Counted from the first letter of the stretch, positions 1-57,315 are shown. The stretch is 64,000 nt of DNA from Mytilus californianus (GCF_021869535.1 NW_026262734.1:52638001-52702000), one strand, 5' to 3'. The notes: generated from the sequence alone by a model not told the origin. Made by a program: numbers and translations.

Positions 1-57
1 GTTTTATAGTAATTTGAAGTTATTAATATTTTCATAATAACATTTACGGTACCAATT

Positions 58-617
58 TTACTGCACCAGTAAACTAACTTATTTTGAGATTTTTGTTTGT
101 TTCACAATTCAACTTTTAGTCAGTTTCAATCACTGTGTGATAAATTCTTTCAATCTGATAAATGTGCTTCGGGGCAGTTGTAACTCATTTATAGAAACTC
201 TTTGTTTTGAACTGTAAATAGACCCAAATAATAGAATAATCCCTTACTAAGAACATGATTTACATTCATTCTTCACAATTAAGAGGCATCCAATCCTACA
301 ATTTCATTGGTCGAGAGTACTTTGCTATATTCTAAATCATATTAGAATATAGCAAAGTGCTCTCGACCCATTATGAAATTGTAGGATTTGGTGTTTCTTA
401 ATTGTGAAGAATGAATGAAATCATGTTCTTAGTAAGGGATTATCCTATTGTTTAGGCCTACTTACAGTTCAAATCAAAGAGTTTCTATAAATGAGTTAGA
501 AATGCCCCGAAGCACATTTATCAGCTTGAAAGAATTTGTGATTAAAACTGACTAAAAGTTGAATTTTGAAACAAAAACAAAAAAATCAAAATTAGATGAA
601 GTTTACTGGTGCAGTAA
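58..617. repeat. Large imperfect palindrome, arms of about 280 bp around a 6-nt spacer
   Basis: 58-335 (TTACTGCACCAGTAAACT...TTTGCTATATTCTAA) is the reverse complement of 342-617 (TTAGAATATAGCAAAG...AGTTTACTGGTGCAGTAA), with spacer ATCATA at 336-341. The arms differ by scattered substitutions and indels. Confidence 0.95.
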
Positions 618-639
618 CATTTAAATCCCGGAGGTCATG

Positions 640-870
640 TTTTGACATATGTGTATTAGTTCGAGATACATAATGAATTTTGAATGCCTTTGTTTACCTT
701 AGGACCGTAAATTTAGTTCGACTCAACCGAAATTTCGACTCATCCAATTTCGACTCATCAGAAGTCTAAATACATATATTTATATGGAACAAAGTTCGGG
801 ACCACGAGAAAACTTCGACTCATCCGAAATTTCGAGTCAACCGAGTTCGAGACAACGAGAGTTAACTGTA
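640..870. mobile_element. One-ended Tc1/mariner (pogo/Tigger-like) MITE fragment inside copy A
   Basis: Ends ...CGAGTTCGAGACAACGAGAGTTAACTG|TA with repeated TTCGACTCA subterminal motifs. It is absent from the 38-kb copy of the host element. The superfamily call rests on the CAG terminus and TA flank. Confidence 0.6.
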
Positions 871-1310
871 TTTTAAAGGCATTGTATTTGATCATTTCCC
901 TGACATAATGATGTAGTATTTGATGTAAAGGACTGGACTAAAATATTGGCTGTAAAATAAAATTTATTTGTAACTCAAATTTTGAATTTATTGATTTGAA
1001 ATGGAAATAAACAAAAAGATAATTCCTCTATAAAATATTACATGATTTACATTCATACTCACAATCAAGAAACATTTCTTACCATTTCATTGTACTGTTG
1101 TGTCATCTAATGTATAAAACATAATTTATTATATTTTCCAAAATTATAAGAAGGTCCTTACATCACTAAAACTAATCCATAAATGAAATCATGCCTAAAA
1201 AGGAAGTCATGCATTAATTACAAACATTGCACTGATAATGAAGCTAATTCTTAAATGCAACCAATCAAGAGATCATTTAAGCTTTGAGCACTTTACAATA
1301 TTCTAAGTTT

Positions 1311-1397
1311 GTAAGAGAATGATAATCCCTTACTTCATGATAATTACTCGCTAACGCTCGTACTTAATCATGAAGAAAGGGATTATCATTCTCTTAC
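1311..1397. repeat. Terminal hairpin, stem of about 37 bp with a CGCTAACGCT-containing loop
   Basis: GTAAGAGAATGATAATCCCTT...TCGCTAACGCTC...AAGGGATTATCATTCTCTTAC. A near-identical copy lies at 39300-39386. Confidence 0.9.
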
Positions 1398-3129
1398 ATA
1401 TACATATAGCGGCATGTGGTCAATTTTATTCGTTGAACTTAGTTCTAAAGCATGAAACATGACGCGGACGTCACGATTTTGTTCGAGTATCCAGTCAAAA
1501 AAGATGCAAGAAATTAATAAAAAAATTTTACAAAAGATAGATTAAAAGATCAACATTATTTTGTTTGCAAAGTTCCATTCTAGTGATGTGACAAATACGT
1601 AAAATTTAATTTAAGATAATTCATTTTTTTCTGTGAATAGATGTACCAGGAGGAGACGATTCAACCAGCACTGACGATAACGTAAAACATTGGATAATGT
1701 GCAAAGAAAATCTTCAACGCCAATATCTCCAGTCCAAACGAAATTATTGTCACCAATGGACAGTTCTGAAGGTATATTTTAATCCTCCTTCTAGCACACA
1801 ATTAATCTGCTACGTAGTAAAGCAAGCACTTAATAGTCATGTGAATTTGGCAAACAAAAATTAATAGTAAACAAAATATGTATGCAAGGAACATAAAATC
1901 AATTGTACTTAAATAGATTTGCTTTTACAATCATGCTGGAAGAGACCACGAACCAGTTAAAAAATGTTAATGAAAATTCTGTACTATTTGAATAAAAACC
2001 ATAATTACGATGCGAAAATTTTATATATTTTTTTATTTTTGCAACAGATGCATCGACAGTTGAAGATATTCTAGAACGTAGCGTTAGTTCTTGCACTGAA
2101 GCGCATATAAATACAGAAGACGCTTCCGATAGCACACCAGTTACAGTAGAGCGGTCAATTTTGGACGATTATTTAATAGGTATGATATACCTTTAAGTTA
2201 ATTATCTTCATTCTCTTAAAAGGAGCTACTCATGGTATGAGAAGTATAGGAACTTTTTCGTTGTTGAAGGCCGTACGATGACCTACAGTTGTTAATTTCT
2301 GTGTCATTTGGCCTCTTGTGGAGAGTTGTCTCATTGGCAATCATACCATATCTTCTTTTCTATATGTGTCTGTTATTTTTCAGTGTTCATTGATTGAGAT
2401 AATGTGCCGTGGGAACATTCGCGCAAAATGACTTCGCCAAATATCAATGTTTTATCTCTGGTCGCTGTTTTTGTTTAATGACCATTTAAGAAAAAAAAAG
2501 GTGAATGTGTTGAATGTGTTGAATGTTAGATGTCCAGTGGAAACTATTATAAGCTATGTGTCTATCCAACAAGCTGAGCCAAGGCTTTATTCGTTATGTG
2601 ATAGTCCAGAAAAAGAGTCATCATACAAGGACACATTATTCTGACTTCGAGACTATTAGTTTCTCAGCGGAGAAGCCGCAGATATCAATTTTCAAGTCGA
2701 CGATGACGATGATGGTGATGTCCAGTGGCAAATATGACAGGCATATAAGGATGATTGAGTGTCAATGTTTAATTTATACACTGTTGTACTAGAAAGGCAC
2801 GATGGATCGTGTTTTAACCCAATACTTCACATTTCTTTTCTTTTACTACGAAATGTTGCATGTTTGGCGAAGAAGATGCTACGAAAAATGTTCAAGTCTT
2901 AGTTTTGAACAAACTTGGGGATCAAACACACGACTGCAAGGATCACTTCCACAAGCAAGACCACCTAGGAGGTATTTATACGGGTACTGGAACTATACCC
3001 ATATCAAAGTTCAGAAATATTACTTTTAATCAAATGTTCAAACACTCTCATTAAATGAACAACATATATTTTATATATTTTGAATTGTTAATTTTCCATT
3101 CTAAAATGATAGCATTTGTTTTCTTTTAG

Positions 3130-3905
3130 GAGAAGCATTAAAAGTACATATTCAGAATTTAGTTATACATTTGTGTACCTACCGAGGATCGCTGTTTTCG
3201 AAATCTGGACACGAAACATGCTCAGTGTCTAAAACAGTTTTATGAAAATCAACAAATGTGTCATACAATTCTCATTGGAAACATTGTCAGCGAGGTTACT
3301 ACTGATAAAGATAAATTGTCAAAGTTTCTTCAAGAACCTGGCAAAGTAGCAGTTGAAACTTTAGGTGGTAATCATACAAGGCATGCGCTACAATGTTTAT
3401 TCGCAAGCCAAACAAAACCTATTAGCATGGTAACCTGTCGGTTATACAACCAATTACCAGACGAGTTGGCGCTACAATTAGGATATGAACACGATGCATC
3501 TAATACATTAGGAAATCCGACAAGTTTTGTTGATTTAGTAAAAGTGTTTCGAAAAGAAGCAGCAAAAATAGTAGGAGACACAGATATTAACTGCATGCAA
3601 AGTAGTGAAGTAAAGCAATGGAATTTCAAAGATATAATATGTACCATTCTAGGGATGTACAGAAAGGCGGAAGAATTTCATAACAAATACAAGGTTGTTT
3701 TGAAAATTGCAAAATCAAAGGATTCAGTATGGGGAAAATTCTTAGATTTCTGTTCCGCTTTCGAAATGAATGAAATAAGAAATACTCCAAGAGGTTCCTT
3801 AAAGGTTACACAGTTGAGAGATTTTTCAATGCTTTCTAGTGATAACCAAATACATATTTTGGAAAAGACAAAAGACTGGAGAGTATTTAAGAGAGAAGTA
3901 GAAAG
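3130..3905 (+). pseudogene. Exon encoding a ParB/Sulfiredoxin-like domain plus a helical (HTH-like) region
   Basis: The open frame extends upstream of the ORF-track Met: VPTEDRCFRNLDTKHAQCLKQFYENQQMCHTILIG...VETLGGNHTRHALQ...VTCRLYNQLPDELALQLGYEHD...PTSFVDLVKVFR. This parallels ParB PR..fd...l.eL..SI / PilV / yeii.GxHR.rA / deea..lal.EN / l.p.e.a. Donor AG|GTAAAT at 3905/3906. Confidence 0.7.
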
Positions 3906-4064
3906 GTAAATAAATACATATCATGTCGTGTGCACTGTTAAAAGTTTTCACTGCCTTACATGGTTTTCTCAAATGTTGATTTTATATTTGTAAATGAACG
4001 ATACTTCCTTATCATTAATTGTTCATTTGTTGGTTTGTAAAATATGCTTCATAAAAAAGGCATT

Positions 4065-4455
4065 CAACTGATTTTTATAGTTCGTTCTTATGTTGTACTG
4101 TTACACCACTGTCCCAGGTTAGGGGGAGGGTTGGGATCCCGCTAACATTTTTAACCCCGCCACAGTCTGTATGTATGTGCCTGTCCCAAGTCAAGAGCCT
4201 GTAATTCAGTGGTTATCGTTTCTTTATGTGTTACATATTTGTTTTTCGTTCATTTTTTTTTTACATAAATTAGGCCGCTAGTTTTCTCGTTTGAATTGTT
4301 TTACATTGTCATTTCGGGGCCTTTTATAGCTGACTGTGCGGTATGGGCTTTGCTCATTGTTGAAGGCCGTACGGTGACCTATAGTTGTTAATTTCTGTGT
4401 CATTTGGTCTCTTGTGGAGAGTTGTCTCATTGGCAATCATACCACATCTTCGTTT
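4065..4455 (+). repeat. High-copy interspersed repeat (TTGTCATTTCGGGGCCTTTTATAGCTGAC...TTGTCTCATTGGCAATCATACCACATCTT family)
   Basis: Further copies or fragments on + at about 2245-2365, 6405-6560, 9175-9225, 12880-12970, 15340-15515, 30840-31180 and 33205-33515; on - at about 21490-21700, 43020-43160 and 44100-44200. Confidence 0.9.
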
Positions 4456-5785
4456 TATATATTCAGCATACATTTACGTTCGTGAAGATCGGGAATATTA
4501 TAAAAAAAGACCCGTGACTTTTTTAATTTCATTCACAGTTAAAGGAAAAATTGGAGCATTTCATCGGCCTTGAGGAAACTCATTTGTAATGTTATGATAT
4601 TAAAAATTAGTAATGAAAAAAGGAATGTACACACCAATTTTCAAAGATTTATCACCTATAAAATCGTTCACGAAAATAAAACATACAAAAAAACCCAATA
4701 AACGCTTAGACAAGAATAAAGGAAATGTGCAGCCAATGTCAATGAGACAGCAACCAAACGACACAAATAAACAAAATTTATCTAGAGACACCAAATAGCC
4801 TTAAAAATATAGACGGTCTCCATGTAATTTGTCAAGCTCTTAATTGTCCATTCTATACATGTTGTGAACATGGTGAATAAGTTAAACAGAAACTACCAAA
4901 TATCTTTCATGTACACCGTTTTATCGAAATCACTAAAAAAATGCCGGTTTATTTGTGAAATGTCAATCGCAAAGTCATCTCGTCAACCTTTTTCGATAGG
5001 TCGGGTATTTGGTGGTTGATGTAGACTGCAGCCTTGTAATTTTGTAAACTTGTGTTGTTTTAATGTATTATTGAGATACAAGTGCAATTTCAAAGATCTC
5101 ATCGATATTTATGGTAATTAGCCCGCCTTTCATTTAAAAAAAAACCCGGTATATTGAAATAAAACAGAAAATAGCTCGCACTGTACTTATATCAGTAATG
5201 AGTTACCGACTTAGATAATATCACTGGATTTATTTTGTAGTGTAAGTTCAGGTCGGAAGAAAACAATTGGGAAAACGAAAGCAGATCCGTCAGATGTTGA
5301 CAGAAAGATCAATGATAAGTATGTTGGCACTTTAAACGAACATACAGAATAAGTTGCATGTATCCATTGATGACAATTTTTTTTCTCAATTTCATCATTT
5401 CACGGGAATTCCAAATGTCATTGATGTATATGAGTGCGTACTTTATTGTTTGAACTTCATTTTGGTGCATTTCCGAACGTGCATCTAAATTATAAATCCC
5501 TACTGATGACACACTACTGCCATTTTGATTTATTTTCGTTTACGATATTATTTTAAAACTGCTTTTTGTTAATTATTGTTAAGAGATAATTTAAAAATTT
5601 TATGGTTGTAATTTATTGATGAAATTTTAAACATTACATACCAGTCTCTTAAATTTCTATTGCCAGCAGGTTTAACTTTAATCAGGGAATCAGTCACACC
5701 TCTTTCATAACAAGCATTTAAAATGTGTCTTTGCTAATTCTATATAACCTATTAAATAATTGAGCATTTCATTATATTTATCTAG

Positions 5786-6083
5786 TGAGTCTAAAATTAA
5801 ACAACTGATGACTGCAGATAATGAAAAATTGGCAACTACTTTATCCACATTAAAATCAAAGTTGACAGAAGAACAAAAGAAAAAAAAGGACTTTGAGACA
5901 TTGTTGAATCAAGAAAGGAAAAAATGCAGTGCACTTGAAATTAAATTACAGCAACTGAGGAGATCAGAGAATGAACTCAAAGTTGTCTTGGATAAGCAGA
6001 TTGATAAAAATGAAAAATCTAGTAATCTGCTACAAGTTGAAAAAACAAAATATCAAACACTGGAAGAATTGTACAATAAATTG
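5786..6083 (+). pseudogene. Coiled-coil exon of the ParB-like gene
   Basis: TCTAG| acceptor and TTG|GTAAGT donor. Heptad-rich, K/E/L/Q-rich translation ESKIKQLMTADNEKLATTLSTLKSKLTEEQKKKK...LEELYNKL with no stop. Confidence 0.75.
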
Positions 6084-7658
6084 GTAAGTTGAATACTTAG
6101 TTTTTATAGGGCTGTAATAGCCCTCAGACAAAACGCTTGTTATTTTGTTGATAATATGTGGAATAATATTCTGCATCAGACTTCTGATAGTTATCAGATC
6201 ACAATAATGATGCATGAAGAGTTGTATTTTATATGAAGTCAATTGACCATTCAGTCTGTTGATCTTTATATTGCATTACATAATTAGTCAAACATCTTTA
6301 TCAGCTTAGAATAAATACGAGAGACAACAAAGAAAAATAGACTCTATTGTAAGTTTTATTACCTACGTATATTAACCTTAAAATGCAAAATGTCCTTTAT
6401 TTTTTTGTTAATTGTTTTACATTTGTCATTTCGGGGCTTTGTATAGCTGACTATGCGGTATGGGCTTTGCTCATTGTTGAAGGGCGCACGGTGACCTATA
6501 GCTGTTTATTTCTTTGTCATTTGGTCTCATTGGCAATCATATTACTAATTCTTTTTATATTTAGACAGTGTTATTTTTCATTTGTTGAACCCTTGATATT
6601 AACTTTGTTGATCTGATTGTACGTAATTGACTTAAAATCTGGAGTTGTGTACGGAATTCTTCTTTCAGTGTAAGTGACAAAATAATTTTGACCCCTGTGT
6701 TCATATTTTTTCACTTTCTTATTTGGTCAGATTCTTTTAATCATATGCATTTGCTTTACAAATGAATGTCAGTTTTTCATTCGATAATTTAACAGTTTTT
6801 CCTATTTATTATATTTTATTATAAATTTTAGTTCTAACTTGTGTATCGTTACGTTTGTTGACTATTATATATATTATTCTATGTCAAGTGTACGTAAAAT
6901 TTTTCAATATAGATTTTTATATTAAGTTTGTTTGCTGTTAATGACTACATATTACTGTTACTGTGTCGTGCCATTGTCATTAGAAAACTTTTAATAATAT
7001 CACTTTGTACACAGAATATTTTTTTATATATTTACAGGTATCTGGTGGATTATTGACTCCAAAACAAAAACTAACAACTGACTGTAGTGACAACTTGAAC
7101 AAGAAGAAAAGGAGGATGAGTTCAAAGGTAAATAAAAAAACAAAAAAAGTGTACAAATAACTATAACAATATCTCCGATTACAGAATAATCTGGACAGTA
7201 CTGGCGTGAATAGACAGTGGGCAAATTTGAACATTCTTGACATTTCTGCCTCTCAAAGATTTTTTCTATCCAGAGCAATTTTGAAAAAAAATTCTCAAAA
7301 CTTGTGCTTTACTTCAAACTTTTTTTTAGCCATGTGAGCCATATTAGTTGGCAGGCGGGATCATAAGACACATTTTTAAAACATAATATTCCAATAATGC
7401 GTATTGTCAAATTTAGATAAATCTGGCAAAGTAATTTCAGAGAAGATTTGCCAAAAAGTTACAGATTACGACAATAGTACACTTTTTTAACCTACTTTTA
7501 TCGAGGAGTTTTACGGCTGGACAAGTGAGACCAGTCGGCCATGTCTTTAAACCCTGTCAATCTTTTGGGCCTAGACACGAAGAAATACACTGTGTGGTAT
7601 AAACGCTTTCATATGTTTTGTGCAGTTGTAAGATGCTTATTTTTCATTTATGTTATAG

Positions 7659-8879
7659 GAGTTTGAAGTTGGTACAAAATGTACGTCTGTTGAAGCATTT
7701 TAGTATCCAGACAAGTGTTGGTATACTGCAAAAATACTAATGAAGACAGGAAAAGGTAAGTATTGTTTTAATAAAACAAAATTTAGATGACAAATGTTAT
7801 CAGATTTGATATCAGACGGTACAAAGATAATTCTGTCGTATAAAGAAATAAAAGCGGAAATGTTCTGTACTCAATCAACACATGAAAGTTGAAAAAAAAT
7901 CATTTTAGTAAAAGTTTTCAAATCATGGTAGCAATCCTGATTAAGCAATTCAACAAAACAAGTTATGACGTTTATTTTTACAGAAGAATACTTGTACGAA
8001 ACTATCGTTTTGGTATATATTTATTTTAAACTTTTTTAGTTATGAACTGTTTTAAATCCATTTTCCAACCGAACGCCCAATGTTAAATTTACTGTAATAC
8101 AGAACTTTTCAAAAGTACTACTTTTAAGTGTTACATCGTCCTGAACATGCTTGTACTATTTCCAGCTGGACGTAATTTTATAGATCTTTTTTAAGCTAGT
8201 CACATTTTTTTACGTTTTAAAATGTCCTATTTTAAATGAGCTCATTGCGAATGAGTTTTCAAAAACAGCTTTATAATGGTCGAAAAGATAATATTCCACA
8301 GACTCAATATGATGAAAATCATATTTTTTTTATAAAAGAAACAGTGGTAGCACCAGTAAACCGGTTAATCAGTTGATCAGATAGGGTCAAACATTCATTC
8401 AAACATTAAGTCACATTAAGTCAGGGTCAAAGTTAATAAGGTCGGGTCAAGCATATTTGACGTCACAAATCTACATTGTACTATATTTAATTTTACAAGG
8501 ACCAGAGCAGAAGATACTGGCAGTCATGTATTCTAAAACCAGGATTTAGGACACTAAATCTATCGGAAAAAATACCGATAAAACATAACATGCTATATAA
8601 TCACAAATACTCCTGTATTTATCAGTAAATTATATGACAGGGGGTACTACTTTGAACGGACAAAAATACATCTTATTGATCGAAGTCAGTTACTCTTTAC
8701 TAGTATCATTATAATTTCAACATTCAAGGTAAAACAGTCCATAATTTATTATTCATTAAGACTCATATCTTTTAAGAATAAATTGATTATTTACAGGCTA
8801 TGAAGTAAATTATGATCTTGATGGATTTGTCAAAGATCTCCCTTTAAAATATGTAAGAGCAGAAAAGAATTTTACATAA
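7659..8879 (+). pseudogene. Two exons (7659-7755, 8797-8879) encoding a C-terminal Tudor/Agenet-like domain with a premature stop
   Basis: Spliced translation EFEVGTKCTSVEAF*YPDKCWYTAKILMKTGK|GYEVNYDLDGFVKDLPLKYVRAEKNFT* fits the Tudor pattern F.vG..veA.W..D..WY.A.I.....Y.V.Y..DG....l....vR. The TAG sits where a cage Trp (TGG) is expected. Confidence 0.7.
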
Positions 8880-9341
8880 TAGACATATTTGGTTTAAACT
8901 TTAAAGTATGCTGAAACAAAACTGAAAGATATTGGAGAATGACCATCGTTGGAGGAATACTATGACGCATCTGCTATCCAAAGAGGAGAAATATTTGACG
9001 AACATGTTTTTTTTTAATTATCATTGTTGTCCGTATACCATGTAAACAAATATTATAAATGTTGTAGATAATGCGTAGTTGTTAATTATTGTCATAGAAA
9101 GTATCATATAGCTTTACTCTGCGTATAAGGAATTTACAGCAGTCATTGGGACAAAGATGCGGATTTCGTTATCATGTGGTCTCTTGTGGAGAGTTTTCTA
9201 ATTCGCAATCATACCACATCTTTTTATTGAATATTTGACAATATTAACAACATGTTACCGGTTGATTATATGTATATATACATGTATGTACCTTTCTAAT
9301 CTATGAACACGAGTGATTAGAGTAATGTTTTCGCTTTGTTC

Positions 9342-9748
9342 TTGGTCTAAGAACCAAATAGAGCTTTACGCATTACATTTCACATTCAATTTTGTTCTTG
9401 GTCTAAGAACCAGAAAAAAAAAGATTGATAACATCTTATTTGATATCATTCGTTTAGTTGGTCTATAGACCAAAATCTGTTGGACAACAGTACCTATCAT
9501 CTGCATGATTTTTACGTTTAAACTAATTAAATATCAACAACTTAGCACTGACGCCTAATGTCCAAAGTGTTTCTGTTTTTGGTCTAAAGACCAGACTTCT
9601 TCGAGCATGAACAGTTTTAAGCAAGTAAATACAAATAACAGTTTGATGTATTGTTTTCAAATGATGGGTTCATGCATGGATTAAGCCATGCCAGTTTTAT
9701 CCATGTGAGAACTAACAGGATATTTTTATATTCTGGTCCAATAGCCAA
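9342..9748. repeat. Array of 16-bp palindromes (TTGGTCTATAGACCAA type) separated by non-repeating spacers
   Basis: Units start at 9342, 9398, 9458 (perfect), 9579 and 9733 (degenerate). Start-to-start spacing is 56, 60, 121 and 154. Confidence 0.8.
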
Positions 9749-11860
9749 AATATTTATACACCGATTTAAAAATTATTCCAATTCTGTTAGACGAAACTCT
9801 TTTAATTTAGCAAAAAATAATTAAAATAATTTGGGGAAATGTCAATGTCACTGCTAGTGATATATCAATCGTATGGGTAGTAGAATGTTCAAAATTATTA
9901 AAACTTTGCAATCAAGTCAGTTAAACATGTCGATCTGGTATTTAAACTGAATTCTGTCTTAGTACATATAATGGTTGACATGTATCAAAGAGGAAAAGAA
10001 TGCATTTTCCCTTTTAGAAATGGATTCAGTTAGCTATTATTTGGTTTAACAAAATATTCACTGGGGTGTTGACCAGCGAAAGCTTGGGGAATAAAGGAAC
10101 TCAATTACTTCATCCAAAAGGCATCAACTGGAAGTATTAGAAGTTTGATATCTATAATTTAGTATGTATTTACACAAACTACTACACTTGTGTATATTTG
10201 GGAAATTTTGGATCTATGAATATGCAGAAACGTTTCGCGGCTCTCCTTATATTGGTCGGTATATCGACACAAATGATCTAGAAAGATTAAGTAACAGCGG
10301 TCAAGTATTACGGCGATCAAATTCAATTTAACGGCAAATTCTGAGAAAATATCCGTTGTATTATCAATAGAAGGAAACAATAGGAAAAAAAGAAATATGT
10401 CTGTCAAAATGGTTTAACTTCTTCAAAAATAATGTGCACTAAATTGATGAAAAACTCTCGGAGGGGCCACTTCAATCTTTTTTTTGGTAGGGTTGAGCAA
10501 CTGAGACATCAAGTACCCCTCCCTTTTCATACATTTTGTTTATCAAAAATATATACCTTGTCATATATCAATTAACAAAAAAAAACAGACCTATAGATAT
10601 ATTTGGATATTTTTCATCTTTTGATACATTAGTATATAGAATTTTTTTTGGGGTCCCGCCCATCATCTTGTCTTGTTTAGAAGCAACGCAGTCGCAAAAA
10701 TCACACTTTGCTTTTCCAATAAATTCGTCACATCTTGTATACCTTCCGCTGTTTGCCCCTTTTATGTCTCTCATTAGGAAGAAATTTCAATTTCAAAAGA
10801 CAATAAAAGATGTTTGGTCAGATAAATGTAGTAACATCCCAGAGATTAACACTTTCACTGGGTTTAATATTAATAAAAAACTGATAAAAAGTTAAATTGC
10901 CGTTCCCTCTTAAAAGACGCTGACACTATGGAATTTCTTTTTTTAATAATTGTTATCAAGTTTCCTGTATACAAATCTTTGAATGTAAATTAGGTGCAAA
11001 TGTCAAAATGATCAGATTTATAACATCTATAACAAGCATCAATGTAAATACCACATTGGAATACATAGAGTTTAATTGGTTTGACAAATAGCTTATGCAT
11101 TTACGACTGTGGTTTAACCGCATCACAAATAAACACGGACATCTGATTAGTTTCAGATATTGGTACTTATGATATAATCAAGCAGGTGATAATATAAACC
11201 TATTGATATATTTAATCTGAATTTCTCACCCTTTTCATATATCATGGAGTATGAAATAGTGACCTATTCCACATCCCTACCACTCATTACATAGTAAGAT
11301 TAAAAGAAGGATTTTCAGACAACGTGTTATTCTTGATCGTGAAAGTATTGCGTGCTCAGACCAGACAAGATGTATAGGTTTTGCTTATCACTGTTGACCA
11401 CATCCTTACGACTCTAGTTGATAGTTGTCTCATAAGAGCTTTCTTACATTTTGACGAAAGGTACGAACAAACGTTAAGCTAAGTTCACACTTCCAATCAG
11501 ATCAACTCGATGATCCCGACTGTCCAAATTTTACATGACCAAGCGTAACCAAATTCTTGATCGGGCCTGTTTACGACTTCTACCCGACCGCTATTCGACT
11601 GTACACGACTTTAACTTAACTGGACCATTCACGACTTCTTAATGACTCCAAACCGACCACTAATTGAATGCATATTCAATTAATCCGACCAATATTCGAT
11701 CTCTACACGATCTTTACTCGACTACCTAGACCAAATCAATTATATTCGATCTCAGCCCGATCTCGACCAGACCAGATAGACTTGATCGTATAGGGGTCGT
11801 AGGGATAATTGGGAATTAGTCGGGTATGTACAATTTCAGTATAAGAAAACGTCTGAATTT

Positions 11861-22819: not shown

Positions 22820-24247
22820 TTGAAAAAAGTTAAAAGTCCAATTAACGGAATGTTGGAAAGGGGCATACATTATGCCAAACAAGAATCAGGTTGAACCCTA
22901 TATAGTAAGGAAACAGAAGCAACAGTAGTATACCGCTGTTAAAAAGTCATATATCGATTGAAAGGAAACACAACAACTATAAGAGGAAAACAACTGAACA
23001 ATGGAACGCTTGTTTCATTCCCCATTTATCGTAACAATAGAAAAATGCCAAAACAAACACGCAAATGTTAATATATAAGGAAATAATATACAACGTATGC
23101 ACTTATATTGTGTTTGTTTTGTGTGACTTTGTTACATATTTGTTTGTTTTATAGTGATTGAGATTATAACACAATATTGACTGCTGTGTTTCAATTTTTT
23201 TTTTAATTTTTTCCTATTATATCTGCTTATTTTGTTCACACATTATTGTCAATATAATGGAATTTAATGCGACTGTCATACAAGTGATAGGTTTAGCTAG
23301 CTATAAAAAACACTTGTTATCCATTCGATCGTTTGAAGTGTTTGAACTTTTGATTTTGCCATTTGATTAAGGATTTTCCGTTTTAAATTTTCTTCGAAGT
23401 TTGGTATTTTTGTTATTTTACTTTTTCCAGTATATTAATTTTCGCTGAAACCAAATTTTTCATGTTTTTGACAAGTTAGAATTAGACTCTAATGTCGTCT
23501 GATTTTTAACTGAAGAGATGATCGGAAATTGTAAAGAATTGTACCTTGTTTGCCTTGTTTTTGTATCCTATTGTGGACCCCCGATAATTTTAAGTAGTGT
23601 ATCTCATTAGTCATGCGGGTTGCCCGGAAGTTTTTAGTTAATAGAAGCTCAACTTTAATATCTTCACCGGGTTGATAAGGTCTGTGTAAAATAAATAAAC
23701 AAACGCGATATTTTTAAATGAGATCGTCCCAGGTATATAAGGTTATTATTTTGCGTTGCATAACACATATACATATATGATTATATATTTTCAGTATCTT
23801 ATCTTTCGAACTACGAAGACAATCTTTGTTATGCACATTGTGATGATTTCTTTTCACTACATGTGTAACACACATAACTCGTCATGGAAATCATAACTTA
23901 GATATAAACGTCACGATAGGTAAATTTCAATGATCAGACAATTATTACAAGTATCCTATAGGTAAGATCACGAGAACATGTAAATCCAGAGTTGTATAAA
24001 ATTAACAGATGGTTTAATTGGTCTGTAAAATGTATCGTATAACCATACATTGAGCAGTTTTGTTGTGCCAGAATATTGTCAAACAATTAAATGACCTAAT
24101 AGCAAGTTTTCAATTGCATATTTATTGAATGTTTTGAATAAGGTTACCATTTAGGGAAACTTTTTAAAAAGTCCTATGAGTACACATTTTATTTACATTT
24201 CTCAAATATTTTGTATTTCTATTTTATTTCCTTAGTTTTCATTCCAG

Positions 24248-25017
24248 ACCAAATACAGAAAATGACAGATAATTGGAAATTTGAAGACAGTACATTTGTG
24301 GACACAAGAGCATGCACTCATTTAATCAATTGCATAAAAGAAAAGAGCTGCATAAGGATAACAGGCACTCGAAGGATTGGAAAAACCTTCCTTGCTAGAC
24401 ACATTGCGCTAAATTTACAAACACAAGGTTACAGAATTATTCCTGTTATAAAACCAACAGACATAACGTATCATTATCAACCTGGGACACCCACTGTTTT
24501 TCTAATAGATGATTTATGTGGAAAATATACTGCTAGTTATCCGCAGATTGAGGATTGGCTTCAAATGGTACCAGTTATCAACGCGATCATGAAAAATAAT
24601 CGTTATAAAACAATTACAACATGTGGACAACAAGTATATGAAGATGATCGATTTCAATTATTAGAGCCTTTTGTAATATGCGAATGCAATTTGGATTCAC
24701 CAAATATGACTCTTACAACTTTAGAAAAAAACAACATCGATGAAAAGACCATAGCTGAAGATGAATCGGACAGGAAATTATCATTATATGATAAATTACA
24801 GCGTTTAAAAGACGAAGGAGCAATTGTATTATTTTTTGTTTTTCTGTTAGTTGTGATTTTTGTGATTTTCATTATTCTTCACCTTGTTTCGTTTGTTTTT
24901 TCTCTATTGTTTGTTTTAATTTTTTATAAAGAATGGTTTGTTTTTTGTTTCTGCTTTGGGATTTCGTTTTACTTTGGATGGATACTGATTTATCATATAA
25001 TTGTGAAATTTGGTTGA
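24248..25017 (+). CDS. Orphan exon: truncated nSTAND3-type P-loop NTPase with a hydrophobic C-terminal tail (possible pseudogene or membrane-anchored variant)
   Basis: TTCCAG|AC-CAA acceptor at the same position and phase as the 55898 exon. Aligns end to end with it (DQI..W..D..FV.TRA; HIAL; GY.IIP; FLIDD.CG; TC..QVY.DD.F..LEPF...ECNL). Walker A is GTRRIGKT, sensor TCG instead of TCR. Homology stops near 24730, followed by an acidic linker and about 60 hydrophobic residues. Confidence 0.8.
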
Positions 25018-48400: not shown

Positions 48401-49739
48401 TATTATTTATATAATATATAAAATGATACATTGTCATGTTATCTTCTCTCTGGCTATAAAATATTTCAATCAGAAAAGCAATTTGTTTTGAAAAGGCAAG
48501 AATAGTGTCATTATAAGAAGTGCACATCTAAAAGACATTATTAAGATTTTTTTCTTAATTCACATGTGTTCCTATTTTATCATGTTTATTTCTCTATTTC
48601 CTGTATGTATTCCATTCGTAGTCAATTTTAAACAGTAATGCTATTTTGTGTTTTTCTTGCAGTTTTTTATCGACTTTTTCAATTAAATTTCACCGAACCA
48701 TTTTTTTTTTATGATAAGAGAGAGGCGATGCCAAACCAGAAGGATATTCAAACTCATATGTCGATGACAAACTGACAACGCCATGACATAAAAAACAACG
48801 AAAAACAGCAAAGGAAAAAACACAACATAAAAGACAATTTAAACAATGAGCTACACGAACCATAGCAAAATCTGGGGTTGATCATGGTCTGAAAGCGTAA
48901 GCAGGTATGCCCCACATGTGTCAGTTGTTGTGTTGCCAAAGTAAATATGTATTCGGTGACAAATATTTAGATCATTTGAAATTGTATTGTTGTTAGTACT
49001 CTGTAATGTTATATCGCAATATTCTATAGATTTCTTTTGAGTTTTTGAGGGAAATTTTACTGCATTTATTTTGGAATTGATTTGTATTATAACTATCAGA
49101 ACACAATAAAAACCTTGTGGAAGCAACCCCTCATTAAATCTCTGAAGGATTGTTTGTCATCATACACAATTGACCACACTACTGTGAGAAATAAACCATT
49201 TTGTTTAATTATTGTAACACAACATCATCGACACCCGTTGATCAAAAATTTGTATAGTAACGGTTATATGTCTTCATATGACTCGGACTATTCTTAGTAT
49301 ATCTAAGCACCATTTTTTCTGCATTCCTTGTAACACATAACGGATGCCATTGTGTGTATACGGCGCAGCAGTTTTTTTTTTACAATTTAGTTTTAAATAC
49401 CCATTTTTGTCACTTGAGTACTTTACGTTACTCTTTAAAAATCATTTCTATTCCTTATGCATGTGTTTAGCTATGGCTTTATAATGTATGATATGTTGCT
49501 ATGCCTTTTAAAAATCCATCATTTCAGAAACGCATAATTATTCATGCATAACGTTTATTAAAATGTTGATCCTTAACTTAGGGTATTTTTAGGTTTGATC
49601 TCATGATGCATATGTTTATGGTATGCTAATCATTTTCATGATATAAGATACAATGTACTATAGAAGCTAGTGATTACTAAAGACATGCCAGGTCCTATGA
49701 TTTTCCGAACAAGAACTGCGAATTGACTGTAGCAAAGAC

Positions 49740-50394
49740 ATGGGAGCAAGGAATTCGACATTATCCCCAGGCTCTAGTGCGAACATAAGTAACTTTGTTA
49801 GATTATTCATAGTCTCTCAGACTGAGCTTCCAAACATACTTCGGGAATTGCTTTTGTTACAAGAGCCACCCGCGTCTCTTGATGGCGATATTCGTAATAA
49901 CACGTACCTGTCTTATACACTGAGAGCCTTTGAATTAAGTGTCATAGCAACTGTCCGAACAAAACAATATGCTGATTTTGATGTTGCTCTTATGTACAAG
50001 ATAATAAGAAATTTAAATTTAGTTCCACCGCAAACACAAGGCTGGGATAACCGAATTCCACCAAATTTGACAGAAACTACAATTGGAGATGATGTAGAAC
50101 GTATCAGGCGTAGCCGGAATGATATTGTTCATAATGTGAATACAAATATCTCAGACTTAGAACTAGAGAATAGGTTCTCATTTTTTATAGACATTGCAAG
50201 TAGACTTGAAGTATACCTGAATAAACGGAACAGAGAATATGTGTCAAGAATAGAAAACGTTAAAACTTGCTGCATAGATCCGGAAACAGAACAAATGTAC
50301 CTTCGACAATTGGGAATTCTGATTGAAAGAGAAGCAATAATGCAATTAAATATATCCGCGGTCAGTCATAGAGTTGATGAGCTGCGTCAACAAA
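49740..50394 (+). CDS. Exon 1: N-terminal MGxxxS motif and DZIP3-like HEPN domain
   Basis: GACATGG start context after a TGTAG acceptor-like site. Starts MGARNSTL. RNDIVH is the Rx4H HEPN catalytic signature. Confidence 0.85.
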
Positions 50395-53300
50395 GTAAGT
50401 AAGTCAAGAAACAGACAAGTAGCCAAATAAATAGTTTAGTGCTATGTTTAAATCTTATTCATTTTTTGGTGTGTGTTTGACAAACAAAATGGCACACATG
50501 TCATCTTTATTTTGACGAAAATTGATAATGAAGTATATCAATTAGAACCAAATACCACTCTAGAAGTCTTTGAGATTGTTTGACCGCACAACGAACCTTT
50601 ATAACTGTGCACTCATTTTCAAAGTAGTTCCGTCAGGCAATAACATTTTTGATAAGATTTGATAGGTTCCATCAACAGCAAATTTCATGTATGCACTTAA
50701 GCACTTGAAAATAAATTGAATTTATCAATGACAAGATCCTTGCTAGACAAAAGGTTTTAAGATTTAAAACGGTGAATAATAAATGATATAATTAAATTGC
50801 TAGCACTTTGTTTAATACTGTATTTCACTAATAAAAAAAAGATTGTTTTTCTTTTGATGTTGTCCATTGACTCTTTCATACAAAACAATAACACTACACG
50901 TGTGCGTCACAGATAAAGTTCATTATAATGATACATGTATATAGTAGATATGTCTATATGTAAGAACTAAATCAGACAACGTGTGTCAAATATTTGACAT
51001 TAGAACTTTAGATAGATTATTGAAGTAACCATTTAAATAATTATACATATAGTTATTGTGACAACTATCTGTTGATCGTATAATGACACATATTACGTAC
51101 AATGGAATGAATATAATAAATGTAATTGTTTTTGCAATAGAACTATAATATGTTTAGAATTTTTATTTTTTAAGTTCTATATCATAAATGATCTTGTACC
51201 GATTCCCGCTGATGCATGATTACAATTGAAATTTGAAATGAATCAATTTTTTTTTAACTCTATATGACAATAATTTATCGAAAAAGAGAGGTAAAAGATG
51301 CAAAAGGGATATTCAAATCAATAAGTCGATAACGAACTGACAATGCAAGACAAAAGAAAAAAAAAACAAAAAAACGACCAAAGACAAGAAACAACGTACA
51401 AAATACAACATTGAAAACAAAAAACTTCATGATCTCATTTAATCCAGAAGAAAGTAGATCCTGCTCCATCTCAAGCATCCGCCGTGCTGCTCATGTAAGT
51501 CCAAACCTCGTGATAAGTCTAATTCGGTAGTTCACCTTCGCGAAAAATATAAATCTGGTTAACCTACTGTTTTCAATAAATGTTCTAAGAATCATTTTAG
51601 CGCAAAAAGACTCAAAATATGAAGACAGCCAATTAATCTGATTTAGGAAATTTATTCAGATAACATTAGGTATGATAAATTACAGATGAACTGGATATAT
51701 CTGGTTTGAATACAAAAGTTGCTACTTTGCAAACTGAACAAGAAGAAACCATTCCTAAGAATATAAGAGGTAAGTGTACAGTATTTTTTCCACTATAATT
51801 CAACTCAATTCAAAGATAAATATATATTTTTATATCCAAACAATATCCAACTTACACGTACTTAGCGTGTGAGATGCTAGAAGTACTTTTTGTTCGTACT
51901 TTTTTAGTTTCGAATATAATTCTTTTTTCTGAATTGAGGTGGCCACTGAAAAATTTGCAGACACACCAATGTAGAATGTATGTTCTAATTCGATAGAAAA
52001 CATGAATAAAAAAAGAATTTGCTGATTCTTATGGGTAAACATATGTCATATACATTCTCGTCTGAAACTACAAATTATCATGTTTCATTCGAATCAACAA
52101 CGCAATGCCTGTAAATTAGGTTCTTTCTTCAGATTGGTAAATGTTAAGTATTTCATTTTCTGAAAATGAAAATCCAAACTTGTTCATGCCGTTTGAGAGT
52201 ACTGATTTGTAAACCTTTATTTAAAAAATATTATTTCACACTTATTTAGTTTGATAAATGGCGGTAACAATCCTCTACTGGATGTCTCATAATTTTTTTT
52301 GTCTAAGACTACATCGATTTTAATCTAGTATAAAGTGGAATGTATTTCATAAAATACCCAACGTCCGTAGAGACTACATGATAAGACAAGGGTATGTGGT
52401 TGGACTGACAATAAAACAATTGTTTAACATCGGCTAAATATAACAGATTTATGAAATCATGGGTTACCGTAGGCGTCCAGCAATGTGCAAAACACAAACA
52501 GTCTTGACAAAGTGTGAAATAATTCAAACGACAAAACTAAAGATCTGATTGATAATTTGACACGTTAAAGATGACAGACAACAACACAAGACAAATGTGT
52601 GATGTAACATCACATTATACGATCGAACTGTAAAAATCCGTTTAAAAGGACTTGACTCATTATTTAGGCACGAAGCTAAGACAAAAAGTACCAATCTAAG
52701 AGTACTCAAAGTTTCTGAAAGCTACTATAAAGCCAAAAACAACTAATTAAGAAATTACATTCTCCCAGAATAAAGTATCAATAAGTACACACGCACTGCA
52801 TTTACTGTAAAGACATAATGTATAAAAGTCTTACAAAGCACGTCCTTGTTAAGACCAAAATAAGTCTGCATTCCGACAGGGTGTAGGACAGAATATTTTC
52901 ATATCAGTAAAGCAATACATAATTAGTAAGGTTTAATTGATCAATTACAAAATCTATGTAAGTAATCCTTTTAAACAGTATTTAAAGATCTAACTATGGT
53001 GTTTATTGATATCCTGTTAGAAAAAAATACATTTAAAAGATAAATAAGTTTAAATTGGTCGTTTCAAAATTGACGAGCTTTTAGACAACTTTTCTGGAAA
53101 ATTACGACGTGAAATTCCGTTTTGAATAAGGTACAGTTATACTTCAAAATCAAATGTGTGTGTTTGTGCGAGAACTAAGTACAATATTTCAGTAATTTAT
53201 AGTACCGACATCACTATTTGGTATTTATCAATTATACATAGGTTACGTTCATTGATAATTTAAAACGTCACTACAGACTCAAGTATAATGACCTAGAAGG

Positions 53301-56300
53301 GAGATATACACATCGTAAAAAGGACCAAAGGAACATCATCGTTCAAGAAAGGGAAACGATAAATAGCTATAAACAGTTTTCTTGATTATTAAGAGCAAAC
53401 ATGTAATAATGCTAATGTGTTGATTAGATGGAATTTAGACGGGTATTTACTGATTTTGGCCATAATCTGTGATTCATAATACAGTAATACAGGATCAAGA
53501 CTGCTATTATAGAAACGTTATTGGTGCGAGCAGAAATACATACCACCTGTCATCTAATCGGAAGTCTGTAAATGTTTTAAAAACCGCACAAAATTATACT
53601 ATCTGGCCTAATATGTACTATAAAGCGGTACGTATCTTCCGTTTGAGCCGCTTTGTCCATTTGTCTGCTGGTGCACCAGTTTACATACCCGTTACTTCTG
53701 TAATAGCATGCACATATGTTCATTGATTTATTGAAGGAATGTATCTCCCTCTCATATAGCATCATTATTTATCCAGTTTTAGGTTATATCAACTCTTCAT
53801 AGTTTCTATAAGGTTTCGGATTTTCAGATATTTTGGCATAAACCATCACTTAAGAGACGCTCATTGTTACAAAGCGCATCATTGTTTTTTTTTTTATTAT
53901 TATATTTTTTTACAATAAACATGTTATCTTTTATCTCAACATTATACCAATAACCATTCAAATGCCACCAAAAGGAGGGCAAAGACTCTCATTGGTAGTT
54001 AATGGCGTTAACAAAAAAGTCAACAAACATCACCATCGTGACTAAAAATACATTACGGGAAAATGCTTAAGTTGTCTTGTAAAGTAAGAACAATGAAGGA
54101 TAGAGAAAATCGGCCGGTGCACAATTGTTTGGAATGTCAAGATCTCTCTTCATCCTGCTTGCACTAAAATTATCAGAGGACTCATAAAACACTTTAAATG
54201 ACGTTCTTTTACTATCTTTGATCTTTTTGCCTAGTAACATAAAAAAATAGTTGTCTTATATCTCGTTAACTGTTAACTATGGTAGATAGATAGAAACTTT
54301 TAACAGCAAAACAGATCAACAAAACATTATGTACAAACTTGTTAAATTAATAAAACCATTGGATGACTCACTAAAAGTCATTGTCGACAAAAAAATAATA
54401 AGATTTTTAAAAAATGTTCATGCTCTTGAAAATTATGTCGAACAATTTGATAGCAAATTATAAACTGTAAACAGTAACTTATATGTCATGTTATTACAAT
54501 CAGCTAGCGCTGAATAATGAGTATCTTCTACAATTATTAAAGACTGGTAGATACAGTATATGTAATAGTTTCATGCTTTCGTTTCTTACTTGTAGGACAT
54601 TTCCCACTTCCAGCTTGGTATTTTCATTTCCGTCTTGACATTTCGCACTTTCATCCTACTCGTTCACTCCAAGTTGACAATGTTCACTTGCAAAATGACT
54701 ATTCACTTCATACTTGACATATTTCACTTCTAGCTAGAAATTTCTCAATTCCAAGTTGACATTTCTCTGTTAATAACACTCATCATAATAAAACTTGAAC
54801 GTGTGAAAAATGTTAACTTTTAAAAATTACAAGTTGGAAGTTTAAAATGTCGAGATGAAACTAAAAACTACAAAATTGATACTCAAAAAGGTTCAGTAAT
54901 TTTAACGACAGAACTCCCTGCCCGGTTTTTCTTACACAAAAGCTTTATTGTAACAACAGTTAGCTATTTACATGTGTGCTCTGCGTTTCTATTTGTTTAT
55001 TATTATGATGTGAGCAAAAAACATTGAATAATAACAAAATTTACATGTTTCATTACATGTCTAAGTACCTATTCTTTTCCGTACTCCTTTCAAATACAAT
55101 ATTACATTACTGAATGTTCATATTATTAGTCCCCTATTGACAAAGTCGATGGGGACTTTAGGTTGGGACTCCGTCAGTCCGTCTGTCTGTCTGTCCATTC
55201 GTCAGTCCAGTAAATCAGTTTTCCACACTTTCTTTCTTCGTGCTTGATGATACTGATTTGATATTTGATGTATTGTTTCACCATGACAAGTTACAGATCA
55301 AGTTCGAATTATATTCCGGTCTGACGATTTTGTGCAGAGTTATAATCCTTGAATTAAGAAAATTCACTAAAATATTCAGTTTTCCTTACTTTTTTCGTCA
55401 TTCTTATAGAGGTTGATTTGCTGATTAGTAAATAGTTTTATCATGACATGTTACAGATCAAGTTTGAATTTTGGTCGGGTTTAATGATTTTGTGCAGAGT
55501 TATGGTCTTTGGACTTGGAAAATTCACTGAAATAATCAGTTTTCCTCCAATATTTCCGTCATGCTTGAAGATATTGACTTGATATTTGTTATATAGTTTA
55601 CATGTACACTATGACAAGTTATAGATCAAGTTAGCATTTTGTTCCCATACAATGAATTGTTAACCGGTACCGGACTATGTTAGCCAGGCAATATTCACAA
55701 AATGCTTGTTTGTTAAGGAATACAGCAACTGGGAACATCAACGGCTTTTTTCGGGGTTTCTTGTTTCTGAGTCTCTGAGTCTCTGTAGTGTTTTGGGAAC
55801 TTTTTGTCATCTATTTATGCCCTGGCGTTGTCAACTTCTCTCGACTAATTGGTTTTGATTGTCCCCTTGTATTGTTTGCCTCTGTTTTACATTATAGATC
55901 AAATTAACAAAGACACAGAAGAGTGGAAAATTAAAGACAACAAATTTGTACCTACAAGAGCAAGCGCTTATGTTTCCAGTCACCTGAATAAACAGAGCTG
56001 CGTGACACTGACAGGCAGTCCAGGGGAAGGAAAAACGTTTGTTGCTCGACATATCGCCCTTCAATTCGAGTCAGAAGGATATATGATTATTCCAATCCAA
56101 ACACCAATAGATATAAGGGACTATTATACCCCTGGGAAACGAACTCTGTTTCTTATAGATGATATATGTGGTAACTTCATTGCAAACCAAACAACGCTTG
56201 AGAATTGGCAACAATTGTTGCCAAAAATTGAACAAATACTGGCAGACAAGTGTATCAAAATTATTGCAACCTGTAGATTGCAAGTCTATAGGGATGATAA

Positions 56301-57315
56301 ATTCAATTCATTAGAGCCTTTTAATATATTTGAATGCAATTTAAGCTCAGAAGAAATGTGTCTTACTCAATCAGAGAAAACAAAATTGAAAGAAAATTAC
56401 TTTGGTAACAAAAACTTCAATGACACTGCACAATCACGTGATTTTCTTCCTCTGGCATGTTCTTTGCAATGGCTTTCTGAAAAAGAAGGATCAGATGTTA
56501 ACAACTTGTTTGGAAGTCCGATCGATTTCTATAAAAAAGAATTAGACAATCTTAATAGATATGGTGATGAAGGTAGGCACAAAATGTGTAGTCTTGTTTT
56601 ATACGTCCTTTTTAATAATTATCTCGAGGAAACATGGGCCGAAGGTAGAATCACAGATGAACAGCGTCATGTTTTAGACGATGTATATTTGGCTTGCAGA
56701 CTGAATACAGGTACACCAAAGACTCAACTCATGGATGCATTAGATACACTAGAAGGTTCACTAGTTTGTAAAAGAAACGCAGCATACAGTGCCATACATG
56801 ACCAAATTTTTGATTTCATGGCTCATTACTTCGGTGGAAGAATGATGCGCTGTTTGATTGATCATTCTGATTCTTATTTCATAAATGAACGTTTTCAGTG
56901 GAAAACAATGAAGAATTTACATACAACTGACATTGCTTTCGCTATAGAGCTAACTGATGAAACTTTGCAGTTGTATTTTGACATATTAGTGAAAGACTGG
57001 TCAAAGGGCAAGGTAACAGTCGTAATTAACAACTCAAGCACACCATCTATACTTGTTCCTCATTCCTATCCATGTTACATTTTTCACTTCAAAAAAATCA
57101 TGGAAGAGGATCAACATACCTGTATTTATACATCAGACCGTACTGCACTGGTTACCGAAATTTTGGATAACCAAACCAGGAACTTTATATCTGAGAAACA
57201 GGCTATGAGTGCTCTCAATTTTAGAATTCATTCATACATTTTTGTATTATTCAAAATTATCAGTAAATTGTGTTCTCTACAAGGTTCACCATTACTTCAC
57301 CTTTCATCCATCTGA
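49740..57315 (+). CDS. HEPN (DZIP3-type) + linker + nSTAND3 NTPase protein, 3 coding exons, 718 aa
   Basis: Exons 49740-50394 (A|GTAAGT), 51686-51769 (ACAG|...G|GTAAGT) and 55898-57315 (ATAG|). All junctions are phase 1 and the total is 2157 nt, 719 codons with no internal stop. HEPN: FDVALMYKIIRNL..PP..GW...TIGDDVERIRRSRNDIVH. Linker: EETIPKNIR|DQI..W. STAND: GSPGEGKT, LFLIDD, TCR, LPLAC, HDQIFDF. Confidence 0.85.
55125..55715 (+). mobile_element. HINE/pearl-like MITE with about 3 tandem cores of about 160 bp, in intron 2
   Basis: TTATTAGTCCCC...GGGGACT subTIR, (GTCT/GTCC)n microsatellite, repeated ATGACAAGTTACAGATCAAGTT...GATTTTGTGCAGAGTTAT cores and a 3' ...AATGCTTGTT end. Confidence 0.75.
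55898..57315 (+). CDS. Exon 3: nSTAND3 NTPase + helical/winged-helix region, no ankyrin repeats
   Basis: Intact Walker A GSPGEGKT, Walker B LFLIDD and sensor TCR. Family-like sequence continues to DWSKGKV (about 57015), followed by about 95 unrecognised codons. Confidence 0.85.

Follow-up and report, generated by a model that had tools for sequence, protein, structure and literature searches.

A broken ParB–Tudor gene in a mussel genome belongs to a family of giant transposons with palindrome arrays at their ends

Introduction

ParB-like genes have been described as accessory genes of giant DNA transposons in algae. As described in the available text of one source, the 21.5-kb element Sola1-1_Ec32 of the brown alga Ectocarpus has AACCG termini, makes a 4-bp target duplication and carries, on the strand opposite the transposase, an accessory gene that combines ParB with a DNA methyltransferase; the same text calls a Tudor-bearing Gypsy the first reported transposable element with a Tudor domain (PMC12477816). 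In red algae, Plavaka PAG3 is described as a ParB-like accessory protein, and neighbouring inverted-repeat arrays are proposed as its binding sites (10.1101/2025.02.11.637652, available part). Here we analyse a 64,000-nucleotide stretch of the Mytilus californianus genome (GCF_021869535.1 NW_026262734.1:52638001-52702000), called the window throughout, in which a mussel family of ~40-kb cut-and-paste transposons has left a broken copy of its second gene. The gene joins a ParB-like region to a coiled coil and a Tudor domain, and its carrier has in common with Sola1-1_Ec32 the giant, probably Sola1, type, AAC termini, a 4-bp duplication and a ParB-like gene opposite the transposase.

Our literature search found no report of a ParB-carrying transposon in animals; Repbase, subscription papers and bioRxiv supplements lay outside that search and may list such elements. 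Clamp-type ParB proteins have been objects of study in bacteria, archaea and phages. The main text of a ParB-fold survey, in its available part, contains none of the terms 'transpos', 'Tudor' or 'animal', and it discusses domain fusions only for bacteria, archaea and phages (10.1101/2025.10.10.680097). The Sola1 elements curated from bivalves have a mean length of 5.4 kb; they come from the same host group and likely the same superfamily as the giant mussel element; the available main text on them is without ParB (PMC10294476). A helix–turn–helix (HTH) of ParB type, fused to algal methylases, is the only ParB mention in the available text of a further source (PMC4738411), and DUF3723 is described as a conserved accessory gene of giant fungal Starships (10.1101/2021.12.13.472469, available part). 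A first-pass annotation of the window had proposed the gene as the best candidate for an undescribed system, a claim that is too strong given the ParB-like accessory genes of giant Sola1 and Plavaka transposons in algae. Its reading of the architecture, the folds, the broken state and the transposon cargo stands, and its suggestion of an endogenous virus is not supported.

A spliced gene with a ParB fold, a coiled coil and a Tudor domain

The spliced gene is confirmed. All six exons named in the first-pass annotation have AG/GT borders and consistent junction phases, and each of them matches P0001, an annotated and intact protein of Mytilus (701 amino acids, aa), at 76–93%, the main exon at 90%. 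P0001 also matches exons at 1641-1771 and 2048-2179, at 93–98%. The start of the gene, with its ATG at G000:C154:52634594 and three 5′ exons, lies outside the window, 3.4 kb upstream. RNA-type contigs of relatives look spliced, the RNA status of their runs being a guess: one of 1451 nt carries exons 1641, 2048 and 3130 (equal depth, plus a piece at 3127-3903), and in another, of 622 nt, the last exon is joined to the coiled-coil one. None of these contigs reaches from ParB to Tudor, no RNA-type sequence is listed for the window, and in one raw RNA run of a relative, of which 6% was read, the exon bins have almost no read depth. The copy in the window is a pseudogene: exon 1641-1771 and the sequence near 3165 are frameshifted, Asp replaces a family-invariant Asn (3493-3495), an in-frame stop stands at the position of the Tudor Trp of relatives, and a coiled-coil exon (about aa 579–613 of relatives) that the C132 copy retains is lost; the earlier description of this copy as broken is borne out.

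Predicted structures place the main exon in the ParB fold, as the first-pass annotation had expected. The model of the window open reading frame (ORF) has a predicted local distance difference test score (pLDDT) of 93.6, and in structure it comes closest to Spo0J, ParB, KorB and Noc; the first 17 matches listed are all ParB-family, none at E ≤ 0.001. The model of an intact relative gives 11 Foldseek matches at E ≤ 0.001 (best 6.8e-5). It aligns with PadC over 98 residues (Z 9.6, root-mean-square deviation (rmsd) 3.0) and with pNOB8 ParB over 212 (Z 8.8, rmsd 5.0), a span that takes in both the nucleotide-binding (NTP) and HTH regions; the whole NTP+HTH span also aligns to KorB and Spo0J, and clamp ParBs, not Srx, SerK or SbnI, head the matches. 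In Pfam neither the window ORF nor 82 family members matched a ParB family, and a family-profile search of PDB sequences returned no ParB; the call of the ParB N-terminal fold comes from the predicted models.

The putative nucleotide pocket is conserved yet non-canonical across the aligned proteins, with the signatures GGNH(T/S)R and HN. Box II reads GGNHTR in 88/131 proteins and GGNHSR in 22/131, and R218, H224, E270, GGNH, R278, H315 and N316 are nearly invariant in 46–47 relatives (R218 in 46/46, H315 in 44/47, N316 in 47/47). R218 and H315-N316 are putative counterparts of ParB Box I and Box III residues. Residues 190–465, the NTP+HTH span, are predicted to form a homodimer (score 0.82 against 0.52 for the best control, at least 95% of contacts shared between runs, partner pLDDT 88) in which residues 313–326 pack on R218, H224, H276 and N316 of the partner, so that conserved pocket residues are buried. 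The mark used for this call was reached by 21/30 microbial pairs, 7/16 animal pairs and 0/23 single chains, and the pass may reflect the model's memory of solved ParB dimers.

The remaining parts of the annotated architecture were likewise recovered. In the P0001 model a long helix at residues 501–605 forms the coiled coil between the ParB/HTH region and the Tudor domain, and the basic patch NKKKRR is present in the exon that follows in the window. A four-member profile matches the PHF20 Tudor at E 1.5e-9, and also SMN and KDM4B, confirming the Tudor domain at the level of profile comparison; Pfam gives Agenet at E 1.6e-4, below the Agenet cut-off, and a single-sequence PDB search of the region gave no match. 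P0001 has aromatic residues W655, Y662, Y679 and F684 in this domain, W655 being the stop in the window copy. These presumably form a methyl-binding cage, and reading of methyl-lysine or methyl-arginine is a putative function. Some relatives end in a different barrel instead of Tudor. The N-terminal ~90-aa beta domain, encoded by the upstream 5′ exons, is conserved and has no match in Atlas, PDB or Pfam.

The carrier is a giant Sola1-like transposon

The gene almost certainly belongs to a giant Sola1-like (DUF7869, DDD-type) DNA transposon, in keeping with the earlier suggestion of cargo in a large transposon. About 4 kb upstream and head-to-head with it is a broken transposase (G000:C154:52626708-52630596, minus strand); its exons match the transposase exon of the paralog at G000:C165 at E 2e-22 and are 86–92% identical to the N-terminal half of the Mytilus transposase P0133. 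At G000:C165 the window paralog, a 35% identical ParB gene, also faces away from a DUF7869 gene, and the head-to-head layout is found at the window, C132, C165, C91, C98 and C143:2.4M. This pairing is kept across genera and across subfamilies whose ParB domains are ~35% identical or less. The flanks of relatives, which the first-pass annotation had singled out for study, have a DUF7869 context at several loci and by accession adjacency. Of the 15 listed proteins in the P0001 cluster, 7 are accompanied by a DUF7869 protein whose accession is one or two numbers away and whose contig has the same length (15/34 transposase members were listed, and accessions carry no orientation), and oyster has one ParB + DUF7869 pair with adjacent accessions on equal-length contigs.

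The transposase matches PF25273 at E 3e-74, and the motifs IIDGMDQ, ADNCxRENKN and GHTHED(I/V)DA are present in 4/4 transposases checked. We take these motifs to hold the DDD catalytic triad. Because the AAC termini, 4-bp duplications and DDD-type motifs match Ectocarpus Sola1-1, Sola1 is the likely superfamily. Sola3-like plus Helitron-like pieces were rejected as the carrier, their arrangement varying between remnant loci on small contigs. Helitron-type PIF1 helicase pieces, and transposase pieces for which we assume the label Sola3-like, lie near decayed ParB remnants on small contigs (L037-L038, L058).

An apparently complete paralogous element of 43.5 kb (G000:C165:84809813-84853295) has 66-bp inverted ends and an AAAT duplication, seven transposase exon matches, open transposase exons and an open ParB exon. 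By inspection, the ORF list of its stretch contains only the transposase, ParB and nested repeats; no cognate ParA was noticed among the long ORFs around it, in a survey that made no search aimed at ParA. At the window itself, neither a left end nor the catalytic half of the transposase occurs within 60 kb upstream, and the window family is known only as fragments among the loci seen in the genome. Three of its copies nevertheless end at the identical base, window position 10031, and the window terminal repeat recurs at ends that bear the catalytic half of the same transposase (main exon 93–95% to P0133).

Several further observations concern DUF7869 transposases and their neighbours. The oyster model P0140 has an N-terminal OTU domain (E 6e-9), and a downstream exon of the C98 transposase (L212:2869-3216, minus strand) resembles a Tudor/PWWP-like barrel by eye. 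Upstream of the broken transposase, L021:1175-2302 (plus strand) encodes an intronless NAD-dependent epimerase (E 2e-48), and a glycosyltransferase-like frame runs from ~9953 (plus strand) of L021; these two frames are either host genes or cargo. Another multi-copy DUF7869 family (L089-L096, L135-L140) shares >30 kb at ~98% and runs into a long tandem array; neither a ParB gene nor ends were detected in it.

Element ends carry family-specific palindrome arrays

Mussel elements have AAC termini, as in Ectocarpus Sola1-1, and bounded copies reveal their size and target duplications. A sister family (N) comprises five inward-facing end pairs 17–48 kb apart (for example G000:C1:57442355-57484235) and one solo end; its elements measure 41–48 kb (one 17 kb) and have ~500-bp imperfect inverted ends with dozens of palindromes. 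Two of its copies are 99.5–99.8% identical over ~41 kb, and 3/5 end pairs have 4-bp duplications. Over all two-ended elements, duplications of 4 bp flank 4/6 (AAAT, CATT, CAGT, TCTA) and two have none. An AWWT target preference is given as a Sola1 hallmark in the available text of PMC3845634; it fits the AAAT duplication and the single-end flanks ATAT, ATAT, AAAT and AAAT, and does not fit AGCT, ATTA or the three sister-family duplications.

Arrays of a 14–16-bp palindrome, a different one in each family, lie within ~700 bp of the ends. The window family has TGGTC-N4-GACCA, the C165 family TGGGGA-N4-TCCCCA and the sister family ATCCTATAGGAT variants. In the window, the palindrome at 9459 is a perfect 16-mer, TTGGTCTATAGACCAA, and a fifth copy with two mismatches lies at 9734. 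Allowing at most one mismatch, the window motif has 4 matches, all in the subterminal array, against 0.78 expected (1/100 shuffles reach 4), and it also clusters at six other family ends, the opposite end type included. The C165 palindrome has 13 matches in 90 kb, all ≤ 660 bp from the two ends, and related arrays are found at 3/10 transposase-picked loci. In length and symmetry we liken these palindromes to parS, and they are candidate parS-like loading sites for the ParB protein. Absent from the first-pass annotation were the transposase lying head-to-head with the gene, the end of the element (10031) and the arrays near the termini. Coordinates in the window are collected in Table 1.

Table 1. 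Features of the decayed element and its ParB–Tudor gene, in window coordinates
Feature	Position	Strand	Remark
Right-hand part of decayed giant Sola1-like (DUF7869) DNA transposon	1..10031	.	Continues upstream of the window
Linker exon, predicted disordered (aa 110-153 of intact relative)	1641..1771	+	Frameshifted in window copy
Linker exon, predicted disordered (aa 154-198)	2048..2179	+	
Exon of predicted ParB/Srx nucleotide-binding fold and following helical region superposing on ParB HTH DNA-binding domain	3130..3905	+	Frameshift near 3165
GGNHTR, family form of the Box II phosphate motif of ParB (departs from canonical GxxR)	3364..3381	+	
Family His-Asn motif	3490..3495	+	Asn in 47/47 aligned relatives; Asp in window copy
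High-copy nested repeat inside intron, outside gene proper	4063..4463	.	
Short linker exon (aa 454-479)	5241..5318	+	
Coiled-coil exon	5786..6083	+	Next exon of intact relatives lost in window copy
Exon with basic patch NKKKRR (7098-7115), putative nuclear localisation signal	7038..7127	+	
Tudor domain, first exon	7659..7755	+	In-frame TAG 7701-7703; three-residue insertion
Tudor domain, last exon with stop codon	8797..8879	+	
Subterminal array of four TGGTC-N4-GACCA palindromes (9343, 9399, 9459, 9580)	9343..9593	.	parS-like, candidate sites
Right-end terminal inverted repeat (AACTGAATCCATTTCTAAAAGGG when read inward)	9987..10031	-	Three copies stop at same base

Beyond the element, plus-strand frames at 24142-25014, 49701-50399 and 55849-57312 of the window match nSTAND3 NTPase (E 5e-22, 2e-28) and DZIP3-like HEPN (E 8e-13); they probably belong to an expanded family of HEPN-STAND immune genes.

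Relatives in other animals

A search of cluster representatives returned 95 proteins at E ≤ 0.001. Ten relatives that were looked up come from Mercenaria, Haliotis, Owenia, Branchiostoma, Mya, Magallana and Saccostrea, and two of three more from Dreissena and Solemya; judged by similarity, protein relatives extend to clams, abalone, an annelid and amphioxus. The ParB–Tudor protein of Haliotis (P0029, P0112-P0114) forms one 90% cluster over four species (543–548 aa) and is possibly domesticated. Shallow searches found no relative in viral contigs, two matches at E 9 in phage records that are put down to chance, and a single match in prokaryote genomes, a MarR-like ORF discarded as chance. The metagenome contig L106 has a GGNHSR ParB-like frame (2-904, plus strand) followed by a frame at 1986-3236 (plus strand), in which we see what we take to be methyltransferase-like motifs (no Pfam match); the contig may be a bridge from the animal clade to the algal ParB–methyltransferase proteins. 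The nearest named look-alikes of the family in the Atlas are DUF3723 clusters (0.96, 0.95), and Pfam DUF3723 has no match in the 82 family members, which leaves this link as a lead only.

A possible clamp at the element ends

We propose, tentatively and at slightly below an even chance, that the intact product is a nucleotide-gated ParB-type clamp that is loaded on the terminal palindromes and helps to pair ends ~40 kb apart, with the Tudor domain tethering it to chromatin. The proposal starts from observed features, namely the DUF7869 linkage, the element ends, the 4-bp duplications, the family-specific arrays at both ends and the pseudogenised window copy. From models it takes the ParB fold with its HTH-like region, the coiled coil, the Tudor domain and a homodimer that buries the conserved pocket. 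The coiled coil would keep two subunits together while the paired HTH regions recognise a 14–16-bp palindrome; binding of a nucleotide (CTP or ATP) would shut the N-terminal gate, and the clamps could then slide and bridge DNA. Anchoring of the complex on methylated histones by the Tudor domain would complete the arrangement, and pairing of the ends would become more likely, or the ends would stay accessible.

A number of results weigh against this clamp proposal. The sister family has dense arrays and only a weak HTH-region exon, with no detectable GGNH exon; it has moved very recently, and an intact ParB in cis is therefore not needed for recent movement, so that ParB is either supplied in trans or dispensable. 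Just 4/15 ParB loci examined in the genome have a head-to-head transposase (window, C132, C165, C91), C91 having been picked for its nearness to a transposase and most of the 11 others being decayed remnants on small contigs with short flanks. Conversely, only 2/10 transposase-picked loci have a head-to-head ParB gene within ~30 kb; five control stretches gave 0/5 with ParB, a weak control because most had been scanned earlier, and among earlier transposase-picked families two showed partial ParB-gene exons and two none. Structural matches to the HTH alone are weak (Z 4.0–4.1; KorB DNA-binding domain Z 4.1), and the Arg of the family Box II, GNHTR (GxxxR), stands one position later than in GxxR. 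The window motif was chosen after being seen, and with two mismatches allowed it shows no enrichment (19 matches against 13.2 expected). Transposases, too, can bind subterminal repeats.

Self-protection of the element offers a rather unlikely alternative, in which the protein would bind the palindromes and spread, and its Tudor and N-terminal domains would recruit or block host chromatin factors, so that neither the ends nor the divergent promoter that the two genes share would close; it would have no direct part in end pairing. Algal ParB accessory proteins with DNA-modifying domains are proposed, in the available texts, to modify their own element (PMC12477816; 10.1101/2025.02.11.637652), the best Tudor match is the methyl-lysine reader PHF20, and the top fold matches include KorB, which has a ParB fold and regulates genes at long range; action in trans would be possible and would fit the mobile sister family that lacks ParB. 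This alternative sits poorly with arrays that lie at the ends and not between the two promoters, and with 29 scanned animal proteins that contain no enzymatic chromatin domain. The palindromes could instead be bound by the transposase, the ParB–Tudor protein being a long-carried passenger or acting elsewhere, for example by steering insertion through histone marks. Arrays persist where no ParB gene was detected (N family, C86, C1:73.1M, C91:7.7M), and 8/10 transposase-picked loci have no detected ParB gene. Most of these ParB-less loci, however, are fragments or non-autonomous, the head-to-head pairing persists over diverged subfamilies and genera, and the pocket residues are conserved; we consider a passenger role unlikely.

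That the ParB-fold domain is an enzyme, a nuclease or an NTP-consuming modifier acting on DNA ends or competing elements, appears improbable. Its pocket is His-rich and non-canonical (H224, H276, H315, E270), weak DndB matches occur in 6/82 members (best E 3.7e-4), and repurposing of the ParB fold is described in the available text of the fold survey (10.1101/2025.10.10.680097); yet after the domain come a region resembling an HTH and a coiled coil for dimerisation, as in clamp-type ParB, and the top structural matches are clamp ParBs and not Srx, SerK or SbnI. Chance proximity of an ordinary host gene, or of the endogenous-virus gene suggested by the first-pass annotation, to transposases is very improbable and largely refuted. 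The Haliotis relative, at least 90% conserved in four species and maybe domesticated, and the many ParB remnants with no nearby transposase would suit it; an end shared to the base by three copies, a terminal repeat common to transposase-bearing ends, a complete bounded element whose ORFs, by inspection, are only transposase, ParB and nested repeats, the accession adjacency and the absence of relatives from the shallow search of viral contigs all speak against it.

A bolder form of the clamp proposal is that giant transposons from molluscs to amphioxus encode a working ParB/parS-like module, in which a nucleotide-gated sliding clamp would load at family palindromes on both ends and bridge ends 40 kb apart, and the element (or the excised form of it) would be tethered by Tudor to methylated chromatin. 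We regard this as doubtful; if true, it would be the first clamp-type ParB at work in an animal nucleus and would account for cut-and-paste elements that exceed the usual size limit. The full ParB layout predicted here, together with candidate parS-like sites in animal genomes, provides intact natural proteins and short cognate sites, and opens to test both the role of ParB accessory genes in algal giant transposons and the end pairing of 40-kb cut-and-paste elements. In mussels these large, intron-rich and recently mobile elements are an overlooked class annotated as host genes, which bears on gene presence/absence variation.

Comparison with known systems

Bacterial CTP clamps (ParB/Spo0J, Noc and KorB) resemble the mussel protein in its predicted fold, in its predicted order of NTP domain, HTH-like region and C-terminal dimerisation, in the predicted dimer of the N domain and in the short palindromic candidate sites. 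The mussel protein differs in having GNHTR and HN in place of GxxR and canonical Box III, and in its extra N-terminal beta domain and Tudor domain; its gene has introns and belongs to a eukaryotic transposon, and no ParA was seen beside it, in a survey that made no search aimed at one. Starships share with the mussel element a conserved accessory gene, but are tyrosine-recombinase elements. Closer is Plavaka PAG3, which is also a ParB-like accessory in a giant DNA transposon with inverted-repeat arrays nearby; it belongs to the EnSpm/CACTA superfamily, is fused to a 2OG-oxygenase and has its arrays beside the gene, not at both ends. Relative to Sola1-1_Ec32, the mussel element has an animal host, a length of 41–48 kb, arrays at both ends and a ParB–HTH–coiled coil–Tudor protein in which no enzyme domain was found; the mussel and Ectocarpus ParB proteins are likened by description. 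ParB accessory genes are known from algal giant transposons, and the animal ParB–Tudor form with terminal parS-like arrays is a variant of this kind of gene.

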